From: Candidatus Saccharimonadales bacterium
Lineage (GTDB): Bacteria; Patescibacteriota; Saccharimonadia; QS-5-54-17
Assembly (NCBI GenBank): GCA_040903985.1
Contig: JBBDUI010000002.1
Coordinates: forward strand, 104,204-168,203
DNA: 64,000 bases
Direction of reading: 5' to 3'
The notes under the pieces are model-generated. The model did not search any database, was not told where the DNA came from, and saw only the letters and a program-made list of their open reading frames with translations. A program made the translations under genes and the position numbers. Positions 3,300-19,360 of this stretch are shown in pieces. Positions within the stretch are counted from its first letter, which is position 1; every line of letters begins with the position of its first letter.

Positions 3300-5063
3300 A
3301 TGGCCCGTATCCGTAGTAACTATCAGAAGCTCCAATTAGCACTGTTTTGCGGCAGCTGCCTGATCATCCTGCTCTACCTTGTACTGTTTTATGCCCAAGT
3401 ACTTGGTCCCGGTGAGCTACTCGGTACCTCGCCACTTAACCTAGCTATAGCTGGCCTCCACGTTGTCTATTTCATTCTGTTGCGTAGTTGGTTAAACGGG
3501 CACTCGACCCTGAGCGCTACCGTAGCTGACCTAATCTTCTTCAGTCTTAACATCCTAATCCTCGTACTGGTGACCGGTGGGTTCCAGTCGGCCTATTTCG
3601 TCTTTTGGATCTTCATCATTCTCATCTCAGCCGCTCTAGGCGCCGAAGTTATGTACGCCTACACCGGCATAACTGCCAGCTACTTCATCGTGGCCACTCT
3701 ACTGTCTAACGACTGGCTCGGCTACCTGCATCACCATGCCGCCTACCTAATAGCCAGCTGGATAGCCGGGGGCTTGGGCCTCTGGCTATGGCGTAACCAC
3801 CCGGCGGCCGAGAGTAAGGACCACCAGGTAAATCAACTGTCCGAGAAGCTCAATGTTGAACAGATTAAATCGGAGATTCTACTTAAGAGCATAGGTGATG
3901 GGGTAGTAGTCATTAGTCTGGATGGTGAGATTCAGCTCTTCAACGGGCCGGCTTGTGTTATCACCGGCTGGCCACAAGATGAAGCTATCGGCGTCAACTA
4001 CCGCAGCGTTCTCATCCTTGAAGATGAGGCTGGTAAACAGCTAACCGATGAGGATGACCCCTTCCACAAGGTTATGAGCTCTAAATCCAGTGTCCGCCGT
4101 ACCAATCTAATGTTACTTAATCGTAATCAACGCAAGATCCACCTCTCCCTGGTAGCCTCACCTATATTTAGTGGCAGCTCCCAAGTCACTGGTGCTATCG
4201 GCGTCTTCCACGACATCAGTGCCGAAAAAGCAGCCGCTCGACAACGGGACGAGTTTATCTCTACCGCCTCGCATGAGATGCGCACCCCGGTAGCTGCTAT
4301 TGAGGGCTTCCTAGCCCTAGCCATGAACGATAAGGTAGCCCAAGTGGACGATAAGGCTCGCATGTACATCGAAAAGGCCCACGCCTCGACCCAGCACCTC
4401 GGCAAACTTTTCCAGGACTTACTCTCAGTCACTAAGCTGGAAGACGGTCGCCTAGCTAACCACCCAGAGCCATTCGAGCTGGGCAAGCTGATTAAGACCG
4501 CTATCGATGAACTTAACTTCAAGGCGGAGCAGAAGAATATAGAACTCAAACTAAAATCAAGTCACGAAACCGGTAACATCAAGGCCGACAACGACGTTCT
4601 ACCGCTTTTCTACATCAACGCCGATCCCGAACGAATCCGCGAAGTCTTCATTAACCTGGTTGATAACGCCATCAAGTTCACACCGGAAGGTCAAGTCAAC
4701 ATTTCTATAGGTGGCGATGACCGTCAGATCACCGTCGGTGTGCACGACCAAGGTATAGGTATTCCCAAGGATGAGATTCCGCACCTTTTTCAGAAGTTCT
4801 ACCGTATCGACAGCTCGGCCACTCGGGAAATCGGCGGTACTGGCCTCGGTCTCTATCTCTGTCGCACCATCATCGAGCTCTACAACGGCCACATCTGGGT
4901 CGAGAGCGAGGAAGGGAAGGGCAGTGACTTTTACTTCTCCTTGCCCCGTCTTACCTACGCTCAGGCCCAAGAGATCAAGGCTAAGTTAGAAAAAGCCCGT
5001 AAAGGCGTGCCGAAACCCCAAGAGCCAGGGGAAACAGTTGCACCAAATACAACAAATACGTAG
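3300..5063 (+). CDS. Sensor histidine kinase (polytopic N-terminal membrane domain, PAS, HisKA, HATPase_c)
   Basis: H-box SHEMRTPVAAIEGFLALA. G-box GGTGLGLYLCRTIIELYNGHIWVESEEGKGSDF. At least 5 N-terminal TM helices. The ORF track starts at 3243; the ATG at 3300 (MARIRSNYQ) is preferred. Confidence 0.8.
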   Translation: MARIRSNYQKLQLALFCGSCLIILLYLVLFYAQVLGPGELLGTSPLNLAIAGLHVVYFILLRSWLNGHSTLSATVADLIFFSLNILILVLVTGGFQSAYFVFWIFIILISAALGAEVMYAYTGITASYFIVATLLSNDWLGYLHHHAAYLIASWIAGGLGLWLWRNHPAAESKDHQVNQLSEKLNVEQIKSEILLKSIGDGVVVISLDGEIQLFNGPACVITGWPQDEAIGVNYRSVLILEDEAGKQLTDEDDPFHKVMSSKSSVRRTNLMLLNRNQRKIHLSLVASPIFSGSSQVTGAIGVFHDISAEKAAARQRDEFISTASHEMRTPVAAIEGFLALAMNDKVAQVDDKARMYIEKAHASTQHLGKLFQDLLSVTKLEDGRLANHPEPFELGKLIKTAIDELNFKAEQKNIELKLKSSHETGNIKADNDVLPLFYINADPERIREVFINLVDNAIKFTPEGQVNISIGGDDRQITVGVHDQGIGIPKDEIPHLFQKFYRIDSSATREIGGTGLGLYLCRTIIELYNGHIWVESEEGKGSDFYFSLPRLTYAQAQEIKAKLEKARKGVPKPQEPGETVAPNTTNT

Positions 5064-5074
5064 AATGGGATTAA

Positions 5075-5707
5075 ATGACTAAAGTACTACTCGTCGAAGA
5101 TGACATTAACCTCCGAGAAATCTATGCGGCTCGGCTCAGCGCTGAGGGTTACGATTTAATCACTGCCTCCGACGGAGAAGAAGCCCTATCCAAAGCCGTT
5201 TCCGAAAAACCCAGTCTGATCGTCCTCGATGTCATGATGCCGAAAATCAGCGGTTTCGACGTGCTCGACATTCTGCGTTCCACGCCGGAAACGGAGACCA
5301 CTAAGGTCATCATGCTTTCCGCCTTATCCCAGCAAACTGATCGAGAGCGGGGTGAAAAGCTAGGGGCGAACAAATATCTAATTAAATCCCAGATCACGCT
5401 AGAGGATGTCGTCTCTACCGTAAAGAGCATGATCGAAGAGGGGGAGATGGACGAAGCAGCCGATGATTCACCCACCATCGTCACCACTGCTAGCGGACGG
5501 TTACCAGGTGACGATACGCCGGCTACTACTCCCACACCTGATGGGGCTACACCAGCTACTCCGGTAGATCAAGCGACCACGGATGATGTCGCCAGTAATG
5601 ATACGCCAGCCGATCCTCCCATCTCACCCCAAGCTCTAGGCTCCACCGCAGATGAGATTGCCCACATCGACTCGCAGATGCAGAAGAAGAATCCTAACCA
5701 ACAATAA
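5075..5707 (+). CDS. Response regulator, receiver domain plus disordered T/P/D-rich C-terminal tail
   Basis: KVLLVEDD...LIVLDVMMPKISGFDVLDIL...LIKS receiver motifs. The last ~80 aa are low complexity (TPATTPTPDGATPATP). Confidence 0.8.
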   Translation: MTKVLLVEDDINLREIYAARLSAEGYDLITASDGEEALSKAVSEKPSLIVLDVMMPKISGFDVLDILRSTPETETTKVIMLSALSQQTDRERGEKLGANKYLIKSQITLEDVVSTVKSMIEEGEMDEAADDSPTIVTTASGRLPGDDTPATTPTPDGATPATPVDQATTDDVASNDTPADPPISPQALGSTADEIAHIDSQMQKKNPNQQ

Positions 5708-7323: not shown

Positions 7324-7465
7324 TGGTCCTGGTGGGACTCGAACCCACGTCCTCTGCACAGATGCAGGTGAGTAGCTTGCGCTTGATAGGCTACGGCCGG
7401 CGCCGACCCTAACCTATCCTCACCAATTCAATGCACAGCGCTCTACCTGGCTGAGCTACAGAACC
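7324..7465 (-). tRNA. tRNA gene interrupted by a ~68-nt structured insertion in the anticodon loop; anticodon unresolved; CCA not encoded
   Basis: 5' half GGTTCTG-TA-GCTC-AGCCAGGTA-GAGC-G-CTGTG. 3' half TGCAG-AGGAC-GTGGG-TTCGAGT-CCCAC-CAGGACC-A. These give a 7-bp acceptor stem, canonical D and T arms, and an anticodon stem CTGTG/TGCAG. The intervening 75 nt contains nested helices GGTGAG/CTCACC and GATAGG/CCTATC. Confidence 0.55.
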
Positions 7466-9716: not shown

Positions 9717-10571
9717 ATGACTATCTCAACCATCACCCGCCGTTCATCAGCCTATCCTCAGCTGTTACGCGAGATCGCCCATCCGCCCAAGCAGCTCTAC
9801 GTTTGCGGGGAACTACGTACTGATTTGCCTCTAGTCGCTATAGTCGGCACGCGTAAGCCAACCCGTTATGGACGGGAGATCACCGCTCGATTGAGTGGGG
9901 ACCTAGCTCAAACGGGTATCGGCATCGTCAGCGGCTTAGCCCTCGGTTGTGACGCCATCGCTCACCGGGCAGCCCTAGAGGCGGGCGGCTATACTATCGC
10001 CATCATGGCCTGCGGTCTGGACCGACTCTACCCAGCCACGAACCGACAACTGGGTATCCGTATTCTCCGGCAAAAGGGCGTCATAATCAGCGAATATGAT
10101 AGTGGTATGCCGCCACTCAAACAGAACTTTGCCGTCCGCAATCGTATCATCTCCGGTCTAACGCTGGGCGTAGTCATAACCGAAGCGGCCGAGCGTAGTG
10201 GCTCGCTGATTACGGCCACCTTTGCTCTGGAGCAAAATCGGGAGGTAATGGCCGTACCCGGGAACATCACTAGCCCTTTAAGTGCCGGTACGAACAATCT
10301 CATCAAGGCCGGCGCCACACCGGTAACTAGCGCTGGCGACATCCTGACGGCGCTCGATCTAGCTACTACTGCTAATCCGTCGCTGGCGCCCTCCGGCAGT
10401 AGCCCCGATGAAGCAGCCGTACTAGCGCTCCTAGCCGAGGGGGTGAGCGACGGCGATGAGCTGCTGCAGCGATTAGAATGGGAGCCAGCCCGCTTCAACC
10501 AAGTCATCACCCTACTAGAGCTATCCGGGAAGGTGCGCAGCCTCGGTGGTGGGAAGTGGATTAGTAACTAA
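9717..10571 (+). CDS. dprA: DNA processing protein DprA (Smf)
   Basis: Rossmann-like DprA core (VAIVGTRKPTRYG, GLALGCDAIAHRAAL, GNITSPLSAGTNNLIK) and C-terminal winged-helix-like extension. Confidence 0.85.
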   Translation: MTISTITRRSSAYPQLLREIAHPPKQLYVCGELRTDLPLVAIVGTRKPTRYGREITARLSGDLAQTGIGIVSGLALGCDAIAHRAALEAGGYTIAIMACGLDRLYPATNRQLGIRILRQKGVIISEYDSGMPPLKQNFAVRNRIISGLTLGVVITEAAERSGSLITATFALEQNREVMAVPGNITSPLSAGTNNLIKAGATPVTSAGDILTALDLATTANPSLAPSGSSPDEAAVLALLAEGVSDGDELLQRLEWEPARFNQVITLLELSGKVRSLGGGKWISN

Positions 10572-12914: not shown

Positions 12915-12981
12915 ATCGGTCCTGGCGGCGCGCTCAACTATTCTCAACTGAGAGGAGCGCGCCGCCCGTCACTTTTATCCA

Positions 12982-13290
12982 CTATTCCGTCTCTTTATGC
13001 TTTTGCTCGCGCACATGGCGCACTATGGCGCGGGCGACCACCACACTACCAGCGCTAACCATGGTTAGTAGAACTATCTTCCGGGCTGCCGTTAGACGAC
13101 TAGCGGCTACTGCTCCATCGTCCTCAAACTCTGGCAGCCCACCAATATCTTGATCAGAAGGCAGCTCGGATAATGTACTATTTATTAGATTATTAATAGG
13201 TGTGTCTCCATGAACTAACCGTGCCTCGGTATCGACGGCCTCCAGAACATCAGGGTCTTCGAGGTTATAACGGCTAATAGGGAGCTCCAT
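12982..13290 (-). CDS. Hypothetical tail-anchored membrane protein (102 aa)
   Basis: C-terminal hydrophobic helix LLTMVSAGSVVVARAIV. Weak SD. Confidence 0.35.
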   Translation of the reverse strand: MELPISRYNLEDPDVLEAVDTEARLVHGDTPINNLINSTLSELPSDQDIGGLPEFEDDGAVAASRLTAARKIVLLTMVSAGSVVVARAIVRHVREQKHKETE

Positions 13291-13371
13291 AGTGGCTCAA
13301 CTCTAGCATACTTTGTCTCAATCGGAGTTAAACCTTTGCTATAATCTAGGTCGAATATAGAAGAGGATGCT

Positions 13372-13839
13372 ATGAAAATTCAAGAATTAGATAACACTGA
13401 TACCGGCTACCGGCCCGATAAGCAGGAAATCATTGAGTGGCTCCACACTCAGACACTGGGTGTGATCGCTACCCTGGATGAGACCGGTCAACCCCAGGGA
13501 GCGACAGTAGCTTTTTCCGAGACAGAGGACTGCGAGCTGATCATAGGCACAAGTGAGACTTCACGCAAAGCCGCAAACATCGCTCGTGACGGCCGCCTCT
13601 CCTTTACTGTTACTTCACCCGAACAACGTTACACTGTCCAACTCGAAGGCATAGCTCGCAAACTCAGCGATGCAGAGTTCGAGCCTTACGCTGAGCGGCA
13701 TTACGCCAAACTCCCTGCCTCAGCCCCATTTCGTAACGTCAAAGAGCAGTGCCATATCCTCATCACTCCCACCTGGATCCGCTTCAGCGACTGTAACCCT
13801 TACCAATGGGTCCTGACGGAATACCAAGTAGAGGACTAA
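13372..13839 (+). CDS. Pyridoxamine 5'-phosphate oxidase-like FMN-binding split-barrel protein
   Basis: Length and pattern (GVIATLDETGQPQGATVAF...GRLSFTV) typical of the PNPOx-like family. AGGA SD. Confidence 0.65.
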   Translation: MKIQELDNTDTGYRPDKQEIIEWLHTQTLGVIATLDETGQPQGATVAFSETEDCELIIGTSETSRKAANIARDGRLSFTVTSPEQRYTVQLEGIARKLSDAEFEPYAERHYAKLPASAPFRNVKEQCHILITPTWIRFSDCNPYQWVLTEYQVED

Positions 13840-13985
13840 ACCGCCATTAACCAGATTATAAAAATGTGTCTTCTTAAGCTATATCACATTATTCTGCATT
13901 GACAAATGCCATAATTATGCTATTATAGACAAGAATTTTCTCTATCTAGGAGGGGGTTCGCTATTTGATAACGGAAAAATGGTCT

Positions 13986-14034
13986 GACTCACGGTGATAT
14001 AGGTACGTTAAATGCACCTATGTCACCGTGAGTC
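13986..14034. promoter_or_regulatory. 49-bp near-perfect palindrome (18-bp arms, 1 mismatch) followed by a caccgtga direct repeat, upstream of 14069 CDS
   Basis: Left arm gactcacggtgatatagg, right arm cctatgtcaccgtgagtc, 13-nt spacer, then gtcaccgtgagtcaccgtgac. Confidence 0.4.
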
Positions 14035-14068
14035 ACCGTGACTTATGGGATTGCATAAGGAGAGCACG

Positions 14069-14686
14069 ATGAACAGCATAATGATCAGCCCGGCCATCGC
14101 ACGGGCCTCTACGATCATTCGCCAGAAGGGCATCATCGTGCACTCCGTGCACGAAAGGGTCCACGCTCTCGATGACCTATTCGACGTCAGCTACGCTAAA
14201 CTGGCGAGCGACGCCATCATCTGGATCGGAGCGAAGCACCACGAGAAGGTGGTGCAACGACTCCGAGCCGCAGTGGCTGCCGACCGTCCGGATCTGCTCG
14301 TCAACCTCTTCGAGGAGGTTGCACAGCTTCAAATCACCGCTCAGCGTGAATACGACGATCTGGTGAAAGAGGCCTGGAGATTCTACGACGCGCCAGATTT
14401 CGCAAAGATCCCCGCTCAAGCGCGTGCAGCCATCTTTGACGGCTGCGAGGATCCACTCGTTGGCGAGCTGAGGAAGGTGGAGCAGCTACGCCAGGCAATT
14501 GTCGTAGCTGAAAGGACCTTCCGGTCCCTCTCCAGAATGCCGAACCGGCAATCTGAGCGATCCCGGCCCAAGTCGAGCTCCAGCAAGGTCCCAGGCGTCT
14601 GTCGCTCACACAACTGCAGCACGCCACATGCGAGCAAGAGCGAGCATGATCGTGACCTACGAACCAAGATGCGCGGTCGAAGCTAG
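14069..14686 (+). CDS. Hypothetical protein (205 aa), GC-rich, basic Ser-rich C-terminus
   Basis: ATG at 14069 with AAGGAGAG SD is preferred over the track start at 14045. Confidence 0.5.
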   Translation: MNSIMISPAIARASTIIRQKGIIVHSVHERVHALDDLFDVSYAKLASDAIIWIGAKHHEKVVQRLRAAVAADRPDLLVNLFEEVAQLQITAQREYDDLVKEAWRFYDAPDFAKIPAQARAAIFDGCEDPLVGELRKVEQLRQAIVVAERTFRSLSRMPNRQSERSRPKSSSSKVPGVCRSHNCSTPHASKSEHDRDLRTKMRGRS

Positions 14687-15043
14687 GGCAGCTAGCCCTA
14701 GCACCCGGCGGGGAAGTGGTGCAAATGAGCCGAAACGCTCAGTCCCAAGCACCCTCCCCGCCGCGCACCATGAGCCCTGACCATTTTTCCGCGCTCTTTT
14801 TTTGAATTAGAGTAGCTTTTATAGAACAGAGATATGGCTAGTAGGCAATACTGCATTGCATAGTAGCCAGTTCTCAACTAACTTAGTAACCACCGATTAA
14901 CGAAATATCTCATGCTCTGACAGTTGGTACCGAGTTACTTGCAAATATACTGGATACCGAGTCAGACCATCGTTGTGGGAAGAGGCTAACTACCGGCTAG
15001 GCAAGAAGCGTTTAGCACGCTAATGCTATAATTATAGATAAGT

Positions 15044-15700
15044 ATGAAGCGTATCAAGGAGCTAGATAAGCTTGATCGACCGCGGGAGAAACTAGCGCTC
15101 AAAGGCCCTAAAGCCCTATCGGACCTTGAGCTCTTACAGGCTCTAATTGGAAGCGGCAATAAATACACTGACGTATCTAGTATAGCCAGAGAAGTAAAGA
15201 AACTTCTACGTAAGCACGGCTCTGACATATCCTACAATCAACTAAAGCAGGTAACCGGTTTAGGAACAGCCAAGGTCACTGAGATACTCGCATCGATCGA
15301 GCTTTCAAAGCGCTATCTAGTCGATGACGATCGACCCATCATCGACTCGCCGGAAAAAGCAGCGGAGCAGTTATCTGATATTCGCGACAAGAAACAAGAG
15401 TACTTAATCGTTATGACACTAGATGGCGCAAATCGATTGATAGAGAAGCGCACTATCGCTATCGGCACTCTTACGAACAGTCTCGTCCACCCAAGGGAAG
15501 TCTTTGCCGATGCCATCACCGATCGAGCAGCTGGCATAATCGTGGCTCACAACCATCCAGGTGGCAGCCTCGAACCGAGCAAGGCAGACTTAGAAGTAAC
15601 GACTCGCTTAAAAGCATGCGGCCAGTTACTAGGAATAATAGTAATTGATCATATCGTTATCACGAACAGTAAGCATACAAGCCTAATGGTAGGATTTTAG
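15044..15700 (+). CDS. radC: RadC-like JAB/MPN domain protein
   Basis: JAMM motif HNHPGGSLEPSKADLEVT. N-terminal HhH-like region. Low GC. Confidence 0.85.
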   Translation: MKRIKELDKLDRPREKLALKGPKALSDLELLQALIGSGNKYTDVSSIAREVKKLLRKHGSDISYNQLKQVTGLGTAKVTEILASIELSKRYLVDDDRPIIDSPEKAAEQLSDIRDKKQEYLIVMTLDGANRLIEKRTIAIGTLTNSLVHPREVFADAITDRAAGIIVAHNHPGGSLEPSKADLEVTTRLKACGQLLGIIVIDHIVITNSKHTSLMVGF

Positions 15701-15809
15701 CATGAATATGCATATGTAAAGTTAACGATACAAGTTTTAATAAGTATATTCATACTAAAAGTTTAGCTATCTACTTTACATATGTGTAATTTGTAGGTAA
15801 AATGCTTGT

Positions 15810-16970
15810 ATGGCTAAGAATAATGAATATATTGCCGGTACTACTCGAAAAGCCCATGCTGACAAGGGCTATGAATACTCATATTTCCTTCCGAGCCCAG
15901 CCCCTATAACCTTTGACCCGAAAGACCCTAAGTTAGCTCGGCTTCTAGAAGAGGCGACCCACAAACTAGGTGAACTAAATGCATATGCACGGTTTGTTCC
16001 TGATATTGATTTCTTCATTCGCATGCACGAAACGAAAGAGGCCACAGCCTCAAATAAAATAGAAGGTACCCAAACTAACATAGATGAAGCACTCATGCGT
16101 GAGGAAGATATTGCCCCAGAACGTAGAAGTGACTGGCATGAGGTGCAAAACTATATACTGGCCATGAAATTCGCCATCGATAATCTAGACAAGCTGCCAA
16201 TCGTAACTAGACTCCTTAACCAAACACATAGCATACTTCTCCAAGAAGTAAGAGGCTCTAGTAAGCAGCCGGGTAAGATTCGCAGCTCACAGAACTGGAT
16301 CGGTGGCGCTACCCTTAAAGATGCACGTTTTATCCCACCGGCTAGCGAACACATCCCGGAGCTACTAACTGATTTGGAAAACTTTCTCAATACGGACGAC
16401 CTAACTCTACCACTGTTGATAAAAGCAGGGATCGCTCACTACCAGTTTGAGACTATACACCCATACCTCGATGGTAACGGTAGACTTGGTCGACTGCTCA
16501 TTATCTTGTATCTAATAGATAAGAAGCTACTGCACAGGCCCATACTATATATATCTCAGTTCTTCGAGCAACACAGAGAAGAGTACTATGATGCCCTTAG
16601 TAGGGTCAGGAGCCATAACGATCTTGAGCATTGGCTGAAGTTCTTTCTCGTAGGAGTAAGCGAGACAGCGGAGAAAGCAGTCAATACTCTACAAGCTATC
16701 ATGCAGCTTCGTCATACGAATAGCCAGGAGATCCTAAAGCTTGGTCGACGAGCGCCTAAAGCCGGTAAATTAATCGAACACCTCTATAAGGTACCTATTA
16801 TATCGGTTAATGAAGCAGCAAAAGTGGTAGGTATGACTCCACAAGCAGCTAACACTCTTGTCGCAGAGATGGAAAAGATCGGTATACTGAAAGAGATAAC
16901 TGGTTTCAGCAGAAATAGGTTATTCATCTATAGCGCATACATCGCCCTATTTGCAGATGAAAGTAGCTAA
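15810..16970 (+). CDS. fic: Fic/DOC family protein (fido domain plus C-terminal wHTH)
   Basis: Fic motif HPYLDGNGRLGRLLIILY. Low GC (~42%). Confidence 0.9.
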   Translation: MAKNNEYIAGTTRKAHADKGYEYSYFLPSPAPITFDPKDPKLARLLEEATHKLGELNAYARFVPDIDFFIRMHETKEATASNKIEGTQTNIDEALMREEDIAPERRSDWHEVQNYILAMKFAIDNLDKLPIVTRLLNQTHSILLQEVRGSSKQPGKIRSSQNWIGGATLKDARFIPPASEHIPELLTDLENFLNTDDLTLPLLIKAGIAHYQFETIHPYLDGNGRLGRLLIILYLIDKKLLHRPILYISQFFEQHREEYYDALSRVRSHNDLEHWLKFFLVGVSETAEKAVNTLQAIMQLRHTNSQEILKLGRRAPKAGKLIEHLYKVPIISVNEAAKVVGMTPQAANTLVAEMEKIGILKEITGFSRNRLFIYSAYIALFADESS

Positions 16971-16981
16971 GAAGGATTAGC

Positions 16982-17077
16982 ATGGATATTCAAGCACTAG
17001 AAAGACAACTCTGGCAAGCAGCCGATACATTACGAGGGAATATCAGCTCATCAGACTATAAATATGTCGTACGCTGA
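16982..17077 (+). pseudogene. hsdM: Remnant of type I restriction-modification methyltransferase hsdM (first 31 codons only)
   Basis: MDIQALERQLWQAADTLRGNISSSDYKYVVR then stop. This matches the conserved HsdM N-terminus (LW.AA..LRG...S.YK.VV). Starts 12 nt after the fic stop. Confidence 0.6.
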
Positions 17078-17179
17078 ATCGATATGTACTATCTCAGAAT
17101 TATATCTGGATACCCTGTATAGACACGTAGCAATCCGTCGTCCCGCTATAATCTTAACTGCTCCAGCAAAGTGAAGCCT

Positions 17180-17902
17180 CTAAAACCGCCCGATCCGGAT
17201 CGAGCGGATTATATCGAGTGCGGTCGCGTACTCATCCGTCTCGTCAAAGCTATCAAGCGGCACAGAGTGAACAGCCAGGTCATCGGCTAAATCAGGCGAG
17301 GAGTAACCGCCTCCGATAATGTAAGTGTCCTCATCGGCACCGTATTCGCCACCGAGCGACTGTCCGGGTTCGAGGACGAAATTACCAGCGATGAAGAAGT
17401 AGGCGAAATTATCACTAGAGTCCAACCCAAAAAAGGAGATACTAGTCTCCTCACGCTGGTTCTCGGTCGGCTCGGTGTAGGTCAGCGTCTCAGAAGCCCT
17501 AGCAGCGATACCACGGCCGATATATGCTCGGTCCTGCTCGCGGGCACCTTGACGCAGGTAGATCTTAAAGTGTCCGTCCACACTAGCTCCATCCACCGTC
17601 TGAAAGCTAAGGGCGGGGGAGCGAACCAGGATCGTACCGGCCTCCTCATCCTCGGCGACGGCCCAGTTATTAGGATAAGTGAACTCTAAGGCCGGTTCGC
17701 GGGAAGAATAGGTCTCTTGCTTGACCTCTACTACGTCCTCAGCCACTTCCTCGGCTGCCTGGGCGGCTGCTTCCTCAGCTTGGCGGGTTTGAGAGCGATC
17801 GTAGAAGTACCAGGAGCCGTAGGCTAGGCCTGCGAGCACACCTAGAACCAGGATCGTAAGGAGGATCTTGTTTCTAGTCGAGTGATTACTGACCTTGTAC
17901 AT
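17180..17902 (-). CDS. Hypothetical membrane-anchored (signal-anchor) acidic protein
   Basis: N-terminal TM ILLTILVLGVLAGLAYGSWYF followed by an acidic extracytoplasmic domain. Confidence 0.5.
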   Translation of the reverse strand: MYKVSNHSTRNKILLTILVLGVLAGLAYGSWYFYDRSQTRQAEEAAAQAAEEVAEDVVEVKQETYSSREPALEFTYPNNWAVAEDEEAGTILVRSPALSFQTVDGASVDGHFKIYLRQGAREQDRAYIGRGIAARASETLTYTEPTENQREETSISFFGLDSSDNFAYFFIAGNFVLEPGQSLGGEYGADEDTYIIGGGYSSPDLADDLAVHSVPLDSFDETDEYATALDIIRSIRIGRF

Positions 17903-17960: not shown

Positions 17961-18515
17961 ATGAATCGAGATGAGCTAGACCGAGATGAAGCGATAGAAG
18001 GGGAGCTGGTCGGTAGTGTACCGATGCGGCGGGGTGGTCGGCCTCATGGTCCGGCTCGCTCGCCTAAGTCCCTACGCCGCTACCTAATCGGTGGAGTACT
18101 GCTGCTCTTACTACCGGCAATCCTTCTCATAGCCTTCATCTTAGGCGCCGGCTATCTCAGCGAACAGCTCCTACCACTCTTACTAGCCAGCGTGGTGCCC
18201 CTACTGATAATTACTCTAGTGCTCATCCCACTCAGCCGCCTACCGGCCTGGCGAACTCGGGCTATCCGGCTGACCTATGCCAGCTCTTTCCTCTACGGCA
18301 TCACCGCTTGGATGCTGGCCTTCATCATCACCCTGCAGCACTGGGGTGTGCTGGCCGTCATCCTCGGGCTCCTCATCCTAGGTGTGGGCGTAGTACCGAT
18401 CGGACTGCTGGCGGCTCTGTTTAATGGCGAGTGGGGAGTACTGCTCAATATCGTGGTCTTGCTAACGCTGGCCGCCGGCTTCCGCCAGTGGGCGCTTAAC
18501 CGCCGTTTGCAGTAG
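17961..18515 (+). CDS. Hypothetical polytopic membrane protein
   Basis: Four to five hydrophobic helices. The start is uncertain (track 17895; ATG at 17961 preferred). Confidence 0.45.
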   Translation: MNRDELDRDEAIEGELVGSVPMRRGGRPHGPARSPKSLRRYLIGGVLLLLLPAILLIAFILGAGYLSEQLLPLLLASVVPLLIITLVLIPLSRLPAWRTRAIRLTYASSFLYGITAWMLAFIITLQHWGVLAVILGLLILGVGVVPIGLLAALFNGEWGVLLNIVVLLTLAAGFRQWALNRRLQ

Positions 18516-18613
18516 TATAAAACGTAGATAATGCCTTTAGCGAGTGCTTAAGGTGTTGACAAAATTACATAAAAGGCTTATGTTTAGGGTATAAAGTAAT
18601 AGGAGTAAGCGCT

Positions 18614-18832
18614 ATGAACAAAGGTGTAGTAAGCACAATCGCCCTCGTCTTAGTAGTAATAGGTGGTCTTAACTGGGGCCTCGTCGGTTTCTTCGAGTAC
18701 AACCTCGTCGACGAGCTCTTCACTGAAGGCTCAGGCCTAGCTCGCACGGTATACGCATTAGTCGGTCTATCCGCACTATACGTACTTTTCACCGGTGTGT
18801 TCGCCAAGAACAGCGACAACGCCAGCGTCTAG
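18614..18832 (+). CDS. DUF378 family small membrane protein
   Basis: IALVLVVIGGLNWGLVGFF signature. AGGAG SD. Confidence 0.65.
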   Translation: MNKGVVSTIALVLVVIGGLNWGLVGFFEYNLVDELFTEGSGLARTVYALVGLSALYVLFTGVFAKNSDNASV

Positions 18833-18856
18833 TTACTTCTAGATCAGTTACATCGA

Positions 18857-18884
18857 AAAGACCCCCCAGATCGGGGGTCTTTTC
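18857..18884 (+). terminator. Rho-independent terminator
   Basis: agaccccccagatcgggggtct followed by tttcctt. Confidence 0.75.
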
Positions 18885-19024
18885 CTTATTCGGGATTAGT
18901 AAATTGAAAGATATAGAGCGGCTACTAAGACAAGGATTATAATTAAGCGTAATACGGGTTACGACAGACCGGGTCTCTGCTGTAGTATAGGGAGTAGCAG
19001 TAACTAAAAAGCGGAATTAATTAT

Positions 19025-19360
19025 ATGGATCTACTCAGCTTCGCTCTCGCCTTCGGCTCCGGCTTTATCATCGCTTGGACGCTGAAGCGACCCCTCAAAC
19101 AGCAGCGGACCATCCGTAATCCCGACACCCAGGAGAAACACTACGAAGTAGCTGCTAACCACCAGCGAACGCAGGCTAAGACGAAGCGCAAACAACAGAT
19201 CATCGACTGTATCGATATGAATGGGCAGATTAAGAGTCGTGAGGTGGAAGACATGTTTGGTGTCTCCTCGGCTACGGCCACCCGCTATTTAAGTGAGCTA
19301 GCCCGAGAGGGAAAGATCAAGAAGCAGGGCCAAGGCAGAGGCGTTCACTACACACTCTAA
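19025..19360 (+). CDS. Hypothetical protein with N-terminal TM helix and C-terminal winged-HTH (DeoR-like)
   Basis: EVEDMFGVSSATATRYLSELAREGKIKKQGQGRGVHY resembles a DeoR-type HTH. Confidence 0.5.
   Translation: MDLLSFALAFGSGFIIAWTLKRPLKQQRTIRNPDTQEKHYEVAANHQRTQAKTKRKQQIIDCIDMNGQIKSREVEDMFGVSSATATRYLSELAREGKIKKQGQGRGVHYTL

Follow-up and report, generated by a model that had tools for sequence, protein, structure and literature searches.

The low-GC block at positions ∼14806–17072 of a 64 000 nt stretch of contig JBBDUI010000002.1, from a metagenome-assembled genome (MAG) of Candidatus Saccharimonadales, was analysed by sequence comparison; the whole stretch is referred to as the window. The block carries a radC gene, a fic gene and a 31-codon open reading frame (ORF) and was assigned, with a probability of about 0.85, as the 5′ remnant (∼2.3 kb) of a horizontally acquired operon of low GC content in which radC and a SoFic-type fic precede a type I restriction–modification (R-M) system. 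The parent operon, as found in other Saccharibacteria, consists of radC and the SoFic-type fic and then hsdM, nested accessory defence genes, hsdS and hsdR. An original prediction, made from the letters of the DNA, had read the three ORFs as RadC, Fic and the beginning of HsdM; all three were recovered on the plus strand at the same positions (Table 1).

Truncation within hsdM

The 31-codon ORF retains an ATG and a Shine–Dalgarno-like GAAGGA, and its distance from the fic stop codon was measured as 11 nt, not the 12 nt first given. It matched the Pfam HsdM_N profile (E = 3.2e-05, 25.0 bits, cutoff 24.5) and the PADLOC type I methyltransferase models (E = 2e-4 to 7e-3); the match to the NCBIfam hsdM model was weak (E = 0.009). 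A tblastn search with HsdM of locus L003 as the query (the loci compared, ∼100 in all, are given as L numbers) returned E = 1.8e-10 exactly at the ORF, and 22 of 30 residues are identical to HsdM of L003 and 23 of 30 to that of L105. The match to HsdM on which the original prediction depended is significant.

In blastn, positions 15113–17072 of the window aligned in one piece with L003 6784–8733 at 69% identity, through radC, the intergenic region and fic and on into hsdM. The alignment ends at 17072, which corresponds to L003 8733 and to codon 30 of hsdM (after ...DYKYVV). Past this breakpoint (17072/17073) the window has CGC TGA (Arg, stop) in place of the LGLIFLKYISD... of L003. The ORF had been described as the first 31 codons of hsdM; this holds for 30 codons, codon 31 (Arg) and the TGA being contributed by the junction. 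On the left side, similarity to the relatives starts at ∼15030–15067, at the promoter and start of radC.

No continuation of hsdM was found past the stop codon, either in the same frame, for which the original prediction had allowed, or in any other, and no N6_Mtase sequence was found there. A short extension was considered, in which IDMYYLRIISGY weakly resembles LGLIFLKYISDA after a two-codon shift and the tblastn alignment reaches 17107. It was set aside as unproven, the DNA identity past 17072 being ∼36% by a manual base count and thus near chance, and 17072 was kept as the breakpoint. Elsewhere in the 64 kb, 13 tblastn queries (including five HsdS and two HsdR sequences) gave no HsdM, HsdS or HsdR. 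Because just 30 codons of hsdM are kept, no R-M function can remain. By its sequence the ORF (the stub) is taken to be a pseudogene fragment, presumably devoid of methyltransferase function. Apart from the stub, the R-M genes are absent from the 64 kb; the minus-strand gene said to have replaced them is a flank of host-like composition and no replacement.

Assembly and base composition

The window is 100% identical to JBBDOY010000002.1 (739 kb, GCA_040876815.1). A second assembly (Logan, SRR27977662) is 100% identical over 16 kb, and its own gene caller also reports the 31-aa ORF. The same Fic together with both flank proteins in the same arrangement was found on four contigs of the collection, NCBI and Logan included.

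The GC content of 14806–17072 is 43.5%, compared with a mean of 51.4% (standard deviation 2.1) for stretches of equal size, and is the minimum of the whole 64 kb; the low-GC block of the original prediction is thus borne out. The GC content at third codon positions (GC3) is 0.43–0.48 in the island genes and 0.62–0.70 in the flanking genes. At the left border, GC falls after a run of T at 14797–14803.

The border segments (14790–15043 and 17073–17179) had no match in the window, in the ∼100 loci or in any island protein, and no similarity was found between the left border and the sequence upstream of radC in L003, L099 and L105. No terminator-like site was found in 17073–17179, and the flanks of the block showed neither convincing direct repeats nor att-like sites. 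There is no integrase or recombinase among the neighbouring genes and no adjacent tRNA, and a search of Rfam identified no RNA family within or next to the block.

Because the neighbouring genes are housekeeping genes (der, pth, dprA, an acetyltransferase, a PNPOx-like gene, a PIF1-type helicase and topA), the block is the remnant of a single inserted composite operon rather than a multi-system defence island. Of the 'decayed defence island' of the original prediction, the R-M remnant is real, and the island contracts to this one operon.

Intact relatives

The closest relatives of the window Fic are all from Saccharibacteria, and the top three (78–82% identical) each have radC, fic and a full-length hsdM (484–498 aa) in this order. 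L003 (Fic 82%) encodes a VbhA-like peptide, RadC, Fic, a 498-aa HsdM, three small genes, Hypoth_Ymh, HsdS and Shedu SduA. L100 (Fic 82%) encodes RadC, Fic, a 484-aa HsdM, a 604-aa AriAB/PARIS-like ATPase, HsdS and a 763-aa ORF that runs off the contig, and L099 (Fic 78%) encodes RadC, Fic and a 485-aa HsdM. The order is RadC, HsdM, Fic, four small genes and HsdS in L105 (Fic 74%); in L004–L006 and L102–L104 (Fic 74%) hsdM and hsdS enclose fic, and hsdR is downstream. R-M genes are absent beside fic in L007–L009 and L010–L013, the contigs of L010–L013 ending just after fic. The intact arrangement that a comparison of synteny was expected to show is therefore present in L003, L100, L099 and L105.

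In six of eight distinct close contexts fic lies in a type I R-M operon, and in four of the six radC is the first gene. In a set of 80 more distant metagenome loci (Fic 39–54% identical), R-M genes lie near fic in about one-sixth; of the loci with 3 kb or more on each side, the share is about one-fifth (own count). Both sets agree with the statement of the original prediction that fic genes are commonly embedded in hsd loci. RadC was found within 10 kb of Fic in none of the 80 distant loci; radC–fic as a general pair was rejected, the pairing being confined to a close clade of Saccharibacteria.

Upstream of radC each locus has different, unrelated genes, and the island genes have a GC content of 40–46% in every host, while the host flanks have 45–56%. 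The uniform composition and the differing flanks together point to a horizontal spread of the radC–fic–R-M block among Saccharibacteria. For the block in the window, a foreign origin is argued from its composition and from flanks that differ in other hosts.

Several relatives carry further genes of interest. In L100 an AriAB/PARIS-like ATPase–Toprim fusion (3433–5247; PADLOC E = 8.6e-57) and in L003 a Shedu SduA gene (12972–14237; E = 1.1e-73) are nested in or adjacent to the operon, and in L102 an AAA_15/AAA_21 ATPase and a zeta toxin (13212–14645 and 18395–19069) lie in or beside it. Upstream of radC, L003 6472–6666 encodes a 64-aa VbhA-family peptide with an SVKIEG motif; the only Fic there is of class II and self-inhibited, and the peptide may be an extra trans-acting inhibitor. 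In L054, positions 1–484 encode HsdM residues 10–104 and then, within ∼30 nt, the last 56 residues of HsdR, beside a SoFic-like gene, which implies an internal deletion of most of an R-M operon.

The Fic protein

The 386-aa Fic matched the Pfam families Fic_N (E = 5.6e-23), Fic (E = 4.6e-17), HTH_13 (E = 7.4e-06, 26.3 bits, cutoff 26.1) and HTH_24, and the PADLOC SoFic model at E = 4.6e-115 (383 bits) over model positions 5–359 of 361. Its best relatives of solved structure in the PDB are S. oneidensis SoFic (E = 8e-38) and EcSofic. The catalytic loop HPYLDGNGRLGR is at residues 217–228 and contains the HPYLDGNGR that had been noticed originally; it conforms to HxFx(D/E)GN(G/K)RxxR apart from Tyr in place of Phe, and this position is Tyr or Phe across the clade (HP[YF]LDGNGRxGR).

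For the inhibitory helix that the original prediction proposed to look for, SNKIEG at residues 81–86 fits (S/T)xxxE(G/N). It lies N-terminal to the catalytic loop and aligns with SSEIEN of SoFic. Because this motif is in the same polypeptide (in cis), the window Fic is assigned to the self-inhibited class II. An alignment of 30 sequences showed that every clade-invariant residue is retained, including the T-A-S-x-x-I-E-G segment.

The AlphaFold model of Fic is of moderate confidence (predicted TM score, pTM, 0.74; predicted local distance difference test, pLDDT, 73), with low values at residues 79–107 and 146–171. It superposes on the SoFic structures 3zcn and 3eqx over its full length (∼370 columns) with a TM score of 0.62–0.67, and its C-terminal part separately matches winged-helix regulators of the MarR/ArsR type. 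On these likenesses the 'solitary toxin or AMPylator' of the original prediction can be sharpened to a putative SoFic-type single-gene defence protein.

The nonsynonymous distances (dN) of fic are 0.138 between the window and L003, 0.146 between the window and L100 and 0.155 between L003 and L100, and radC behaves likewise. Synonymous distances (dS) were saturated in every pair; only dN and relative branch lengths were used, and dN/dS was left aside. The window branch of fic and radC is not longer than the others and gives no sign of relaxed constraint, which also fits a recent truncation. With intact motifs and normal branch lengths, both genes look functional.

The putative fic promoter

A promoter-like site precedes fic within the radC–fic intergenic region (Table 1). 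Because the −10-like box ends ∼7 nt before the ATG, a leaderless or near-leaderless fic mRNA is suggested. The motif TTTAC[AT]T, which overlaps the −35-like TTTACA, lies 35 nt 5′ of the fic ATG in eight of nine loci and 32 nt 5′ of it in the ninth (L007). The motif recurs, with its orientation alternating, 56, 75 and 96 nt 5′ of the ATG, at intervals of about two helical turns. In the 120 nt before the ATG of the nine loci 18 such sites were observed, compared with 1.4 expected from shuffled sequences. The loci compared were 15701–15809 of the window, L003 7353–7472, L100 703–822, L099 2332–2451, L004 3665–3784, L105 5188–5307 and positions 9881–10000 of each of L102, L007 and L010. The repeats are kept whatever gene precedes fic (radC, hsdM, NYN, a Y-family polymerase or an MMPL gene) and no such sites were found upstream of radC.

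Dimeric SoFic has been reported to bind to the promoter of its own gene, no more than 100 bp from the start codon (2026 preprint, bioRxiv 10.64898/2026.07.09.737422). By analogy, the phased TTTACAT/ATGTAAA repeats are a candidate operator, to which the window Fic may bind.

RadC

The radC-like JAB gene of the original prediction proved to be a full-length radC. Its product has an N-terminal domain of the helix–hairpin–helix type and a JAB domain (Pfam UPF0758_N, E = 4.8e-16; RadC, E = 7e-39) and scores above both NCBIfam cutoffs (TIGR00608, 201.6 bits, cutoff 133.85; NF000642, 199.8 bits, cutoff 180). The metal site of the JAB domain is intact (HPRE and HNHPGGSLEPSKAD), in agreement with the pattern HxH(x7)S(x2)D, and the protein is 71% identical to RadC of L003. 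A DNA-related role of the RadC family and links to anti-restriction modules on mobile elements have been inferred (PMC3239186). The window protein shares with the RadC/YicR family the full-length match and the intact motif. It differs in that here radC heads a mobile R-M/SoFic island, in five Saccharibacteria loci, an association of which no published description was found. RadC is regarded as a DNA-associated JAB protein that travels with the island.

Features of the block and neighbouring genes

The features of the block and of its immediate surroundings are collected in Table 1.

Table 1. Features of the radC–fic–hsdM remnant and its borders in the window.
Feature	Position	Strand	Description
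Left border, AT-rich	14806..15043		Assigned to the island by composition only; matches no relative; no coding potential
radC promoter-like TATAAT	15026–15031		Within the left border segment
radC	15044..15700	+	Full-length RadC/YicR type, 218 aa (Pfam, NCBIfam)
radC–fic intergenic region	15701..15809	+	Putative own promoter of fic and operator-like repeats
Perfect 12-nt inverted repeat	15711–15722 and 15773–15784		Distal and proximal repeat copies
Promoter-like site TTTACA-17-TAAAAT	15775–15803		−10 ends 7 nt before the fic ATG
fic	15810..16970	+	SoFic-type class II Fic AMP-transferase, 386 aa (PADLOC, Pfam, PDB, model)
hsdM stub	16982..17077	+	MDIQALERQLWQAADTLRGNISSSDYKYVVR, then stop; 31 codons (Pfam, PADLOC, tblastn, blastn)
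Unplaced 107-nt segment	17073..17179		From the breakpoint to the stop codon of the convergent host gene
Convergent host gene	17180–17902	−	240 aa; host-like composition

Just 5′ of the block, a gene with the GC content of the host (14045–14686, plus strand) gave a weak Pfam match to DMP19-like DNA mimics (E = 0.026), which at 15.6 bits is below the cutoff of 25; the protein has a very basic tail rich in Ser, Arg and Lys. This gene is probably unrelated to the island.

Further away, a tRNA was detected on the minus strand at 7324–7465 (Rfam RF00005, 48.1 bits). Its acceptor, D and T arms are normal, and the region of the anticodon loop contains a hairpin-forming insertion of ∼66–68 nt, below the size of a group I intron. 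ARAGORN missed this tRNA with default settings; with introns allowed it was reported as tRNA-Ser(tga) with a 66-nt intron, an identity made doubtful by the short variable arm.

Alternative explanations

Some observations weigh against the reading of the block as an operon remnant with a SoFic-type Fic. No close relative of the genome that would show the ancestral state of the exact site was found in searches with the flank proteins. A scan of genome contigs with the 240-aa right-flank protein gave a single distant locus (L014, 38% identity), in which synteny is not conserved, and when the two flank proteins, of 205 and 240 aa, were sought by exact match, this genome alone was recovered, again in the same arrangement. 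Contigs concordant at the junction may come from read sets that overlap, and with dS saturated, selection after the truncation is not measurable. The window Fic is only ∼26% identical to the S. oneidensis SoFic structures and scores 181 bits against the NCBIfam SoFic equivalog NF046030 (cutoff 550), and an EF-Tu target and anti-phage activity would be assigned to it by analogy.

Instead of losing its R-M genes in place, the block could have arrived in truncated form: a fragment ending inside hsdM would have entered the cell and been inserted by recombination, either illegitimate or facilitated by homology, and the full R-M system would never have been present. This course of events is judged unlikely. 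Transformation would be plausible because dprA, a DNA-uptake gene, is nearby, and a recent arrival is suggested because the GC3 of radC and fic (0.43–0.48) shows no drift towards the host value of 0.62–0.70. The stub is undamaged, its dN to L003 of 0.155 resembling that of functional genes, and no remnant of a distal island gene lies past the break. However, 30 codons are too short to record decay, so that the good state of the stub says little, in-place deletion of R-M genes beside a fic gene is known (L054), and no positive sign indicates that an incoming fragment ended here. Unameliorated GC and an undamaged stub fit either course.

It is very improbable that the 31-codon ORF has been kept as a functional micro-protein acting as a modulator or antitoxin of SoFic in the manner of AS1 of E. 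coli. The ORF does retain its ATG and Shine–Dalgarno-like site 11 nt past fic, a small downstream ORF neutralizes the toxicity of EcSofic (PMC12249575), and the L003 island has a separate VbhA-like peptide with SVKIEG. However, the ATG and GAAGGA are simply inherited from hsdM and are no evidence of function, the stub has no (S/T)xxxE(G/N) motif, and the ∼100 loci yielded no second hsdM stub behind a fic gene. The E. coli Sofic locus examined has neither R-M genes nor an HsdM-like small ORF. The analogy to AS1 was rejected, having no sequence support: E. coli Sofic (reached via a homologue on a Salmonella plasmid) is followed by a second Fic gene.

An assembly artefact, a chimeric join at 17072/17073 behind which the real hsdM is intact, is hardly credible. 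The genome is a MAG, and contigs of Fic relatives often break just after fic (L010–L013), the region being hard to assemble in some samples; against this, four contigs are concordant, including the 739-kb NCBI contig and an independent Logan contig, and both flanks run into ordinary syntenic housekeeping genes. That the stub resembles HsdM by chance is a negligible prospect: its Pfam score barely clears the cutoff and the NCBIfam match is weak, but this reading is refuted by the tblastn result, the residue identity (22–23 of 30), the DNA alignment unbroken from fic into the stub and the position of the stub at the hsdM start of the most closely related island (L003).

Proposed mechanism

The break lies after codon 30 of hsdM; the methyltransferase catalytic domains, hsdS and hsdR are absent, and radC and fic are intact. 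In the operon-remnant reading, the conserved promoter of fic itself would drive its transcription, the mRNA probably having little or no leader, and Fic would probably repress itself by binding of its winged-helix domain to the phased inverted repeats. The protein would probably still act as a stand-alone SoFic-type effector of defence or stress that does not need the R-M genes: once Glu85 in the N-terminal helix no longer inhibits it, the dimer would AMPylate EF-Tu and arrest translation, as reported for SoFic.

SoFic has been reported to be a Fic-domain gene that acts in defence on its own (bioRxiv 10.1101/2022.05.11.491447). Expression of EcSofic is toxic; the protein needs dimerization and is neutralized by the 47-residue AS1 encoded downstream (PMC12249575). 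SoFic of S. oneidensis inhibits translation by AMPylating switch I of EF-Tu and can also remove the modification (bioRxiv 10.64898/2026.07.09.737422). By analogy to these proteins, the window Fic is most likely a self-inhibited and self-repressed AMP-transferase able to shut down translation.

Comparison with known systems

With SoFic (S. oneidensis SO_4266 and EcSofic) the window Fic shares the domain order and fold of a class II Fic with a C-terminal winged helix, a match to nearly the full length of the PADLOC model, the catalytic loop and the N-terminal SxxxE(G/N) motif. Its own promoter is rich in repeats, consistent with the promoter binding reported for SoFic. It differs in its low identity (∼26%), its score below the NCBIfam equivalog cutoff, the Tyr in place of Phe in the catalytic loop and its context: the gene of this clade usually lies in type I R-M operons, whereas the E. 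coli copy examined lies in an element resembling an integrative and conjugative element (ICE).

The ICE-like element, in E. coli chromosomes (L108 6884–9184 and L109 2884–5185 for Sofic), has a MobH relaxase, ArdC and a degraded integrase next to tRNA-Leu. Its Sofic gene is directly followed by a second, different Fic-family gene, and long repeats, both direct and inverted, abound in its Sofic promoter region; the Sofic gene of strain S10 is frameshifted.

The classical example of an accessory gene nested in a type I R-M operon is that of the anticodon nuclease PrrC inside EcoprrI, which senses inhibition of the R-M complex. The intact relatives share this organization, with fic, Shedu (SduA), AriAB/PARIS-like ATPases, NYN and further genes among hsdM, hsdS and hsdR; the window differs in keeping 30 codons of hsdM only. 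The VbhT/VbhA class I Fic toxin–antitoxin system has a counterpart in L003, where the VbhA-family peptide with SVKIEG is encoded just 5′ of radC, whereas the window has no VbhA homologue and carries the inhibitory helix in cis (class II).

Significance

Every component of the block is from a known family, and the decay of R-M loci is commonplace. Mildly new are the recurring layout of radC, SoFic and type I R-M genes in Saccharibacteria, with nested Shedu- and PARIS-like genes, the survival of SoFic beyond its R-M genes, and the conserved phased repeats at the fic promoter. For annotation, the Fic should be labelled SoFic-type and the 31-aa ORF a pseudogene fragment of hsdM; in public pipelines the stub is either passed over or reported as hypothetical. 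The TTTACAT/ATGTAAA repeats offer a concrete candidate site for the promoter binding of SoFic-type proteins.

Saccharibacteria have tiny genomes and few known defences, and in them SoFic is usually found inside type I R-M operons headed by radC. A highly speculative extension, which is quite improbable, is that radC and fic form a dedicated two-gene module heading the type I R-M islands of Saccharibacteria, in which SoFic would be a back-up that fires when the R-M complex is inhibited or lost, and that the retained N-terminal peptide of HsdM, or a VbhA-like peptide as in L003, would tune SoFic in trans, as AS1 does. If this were true, the window would represent a natural R-M-less state, in which the stub would have been kept because it restrains SoFic.

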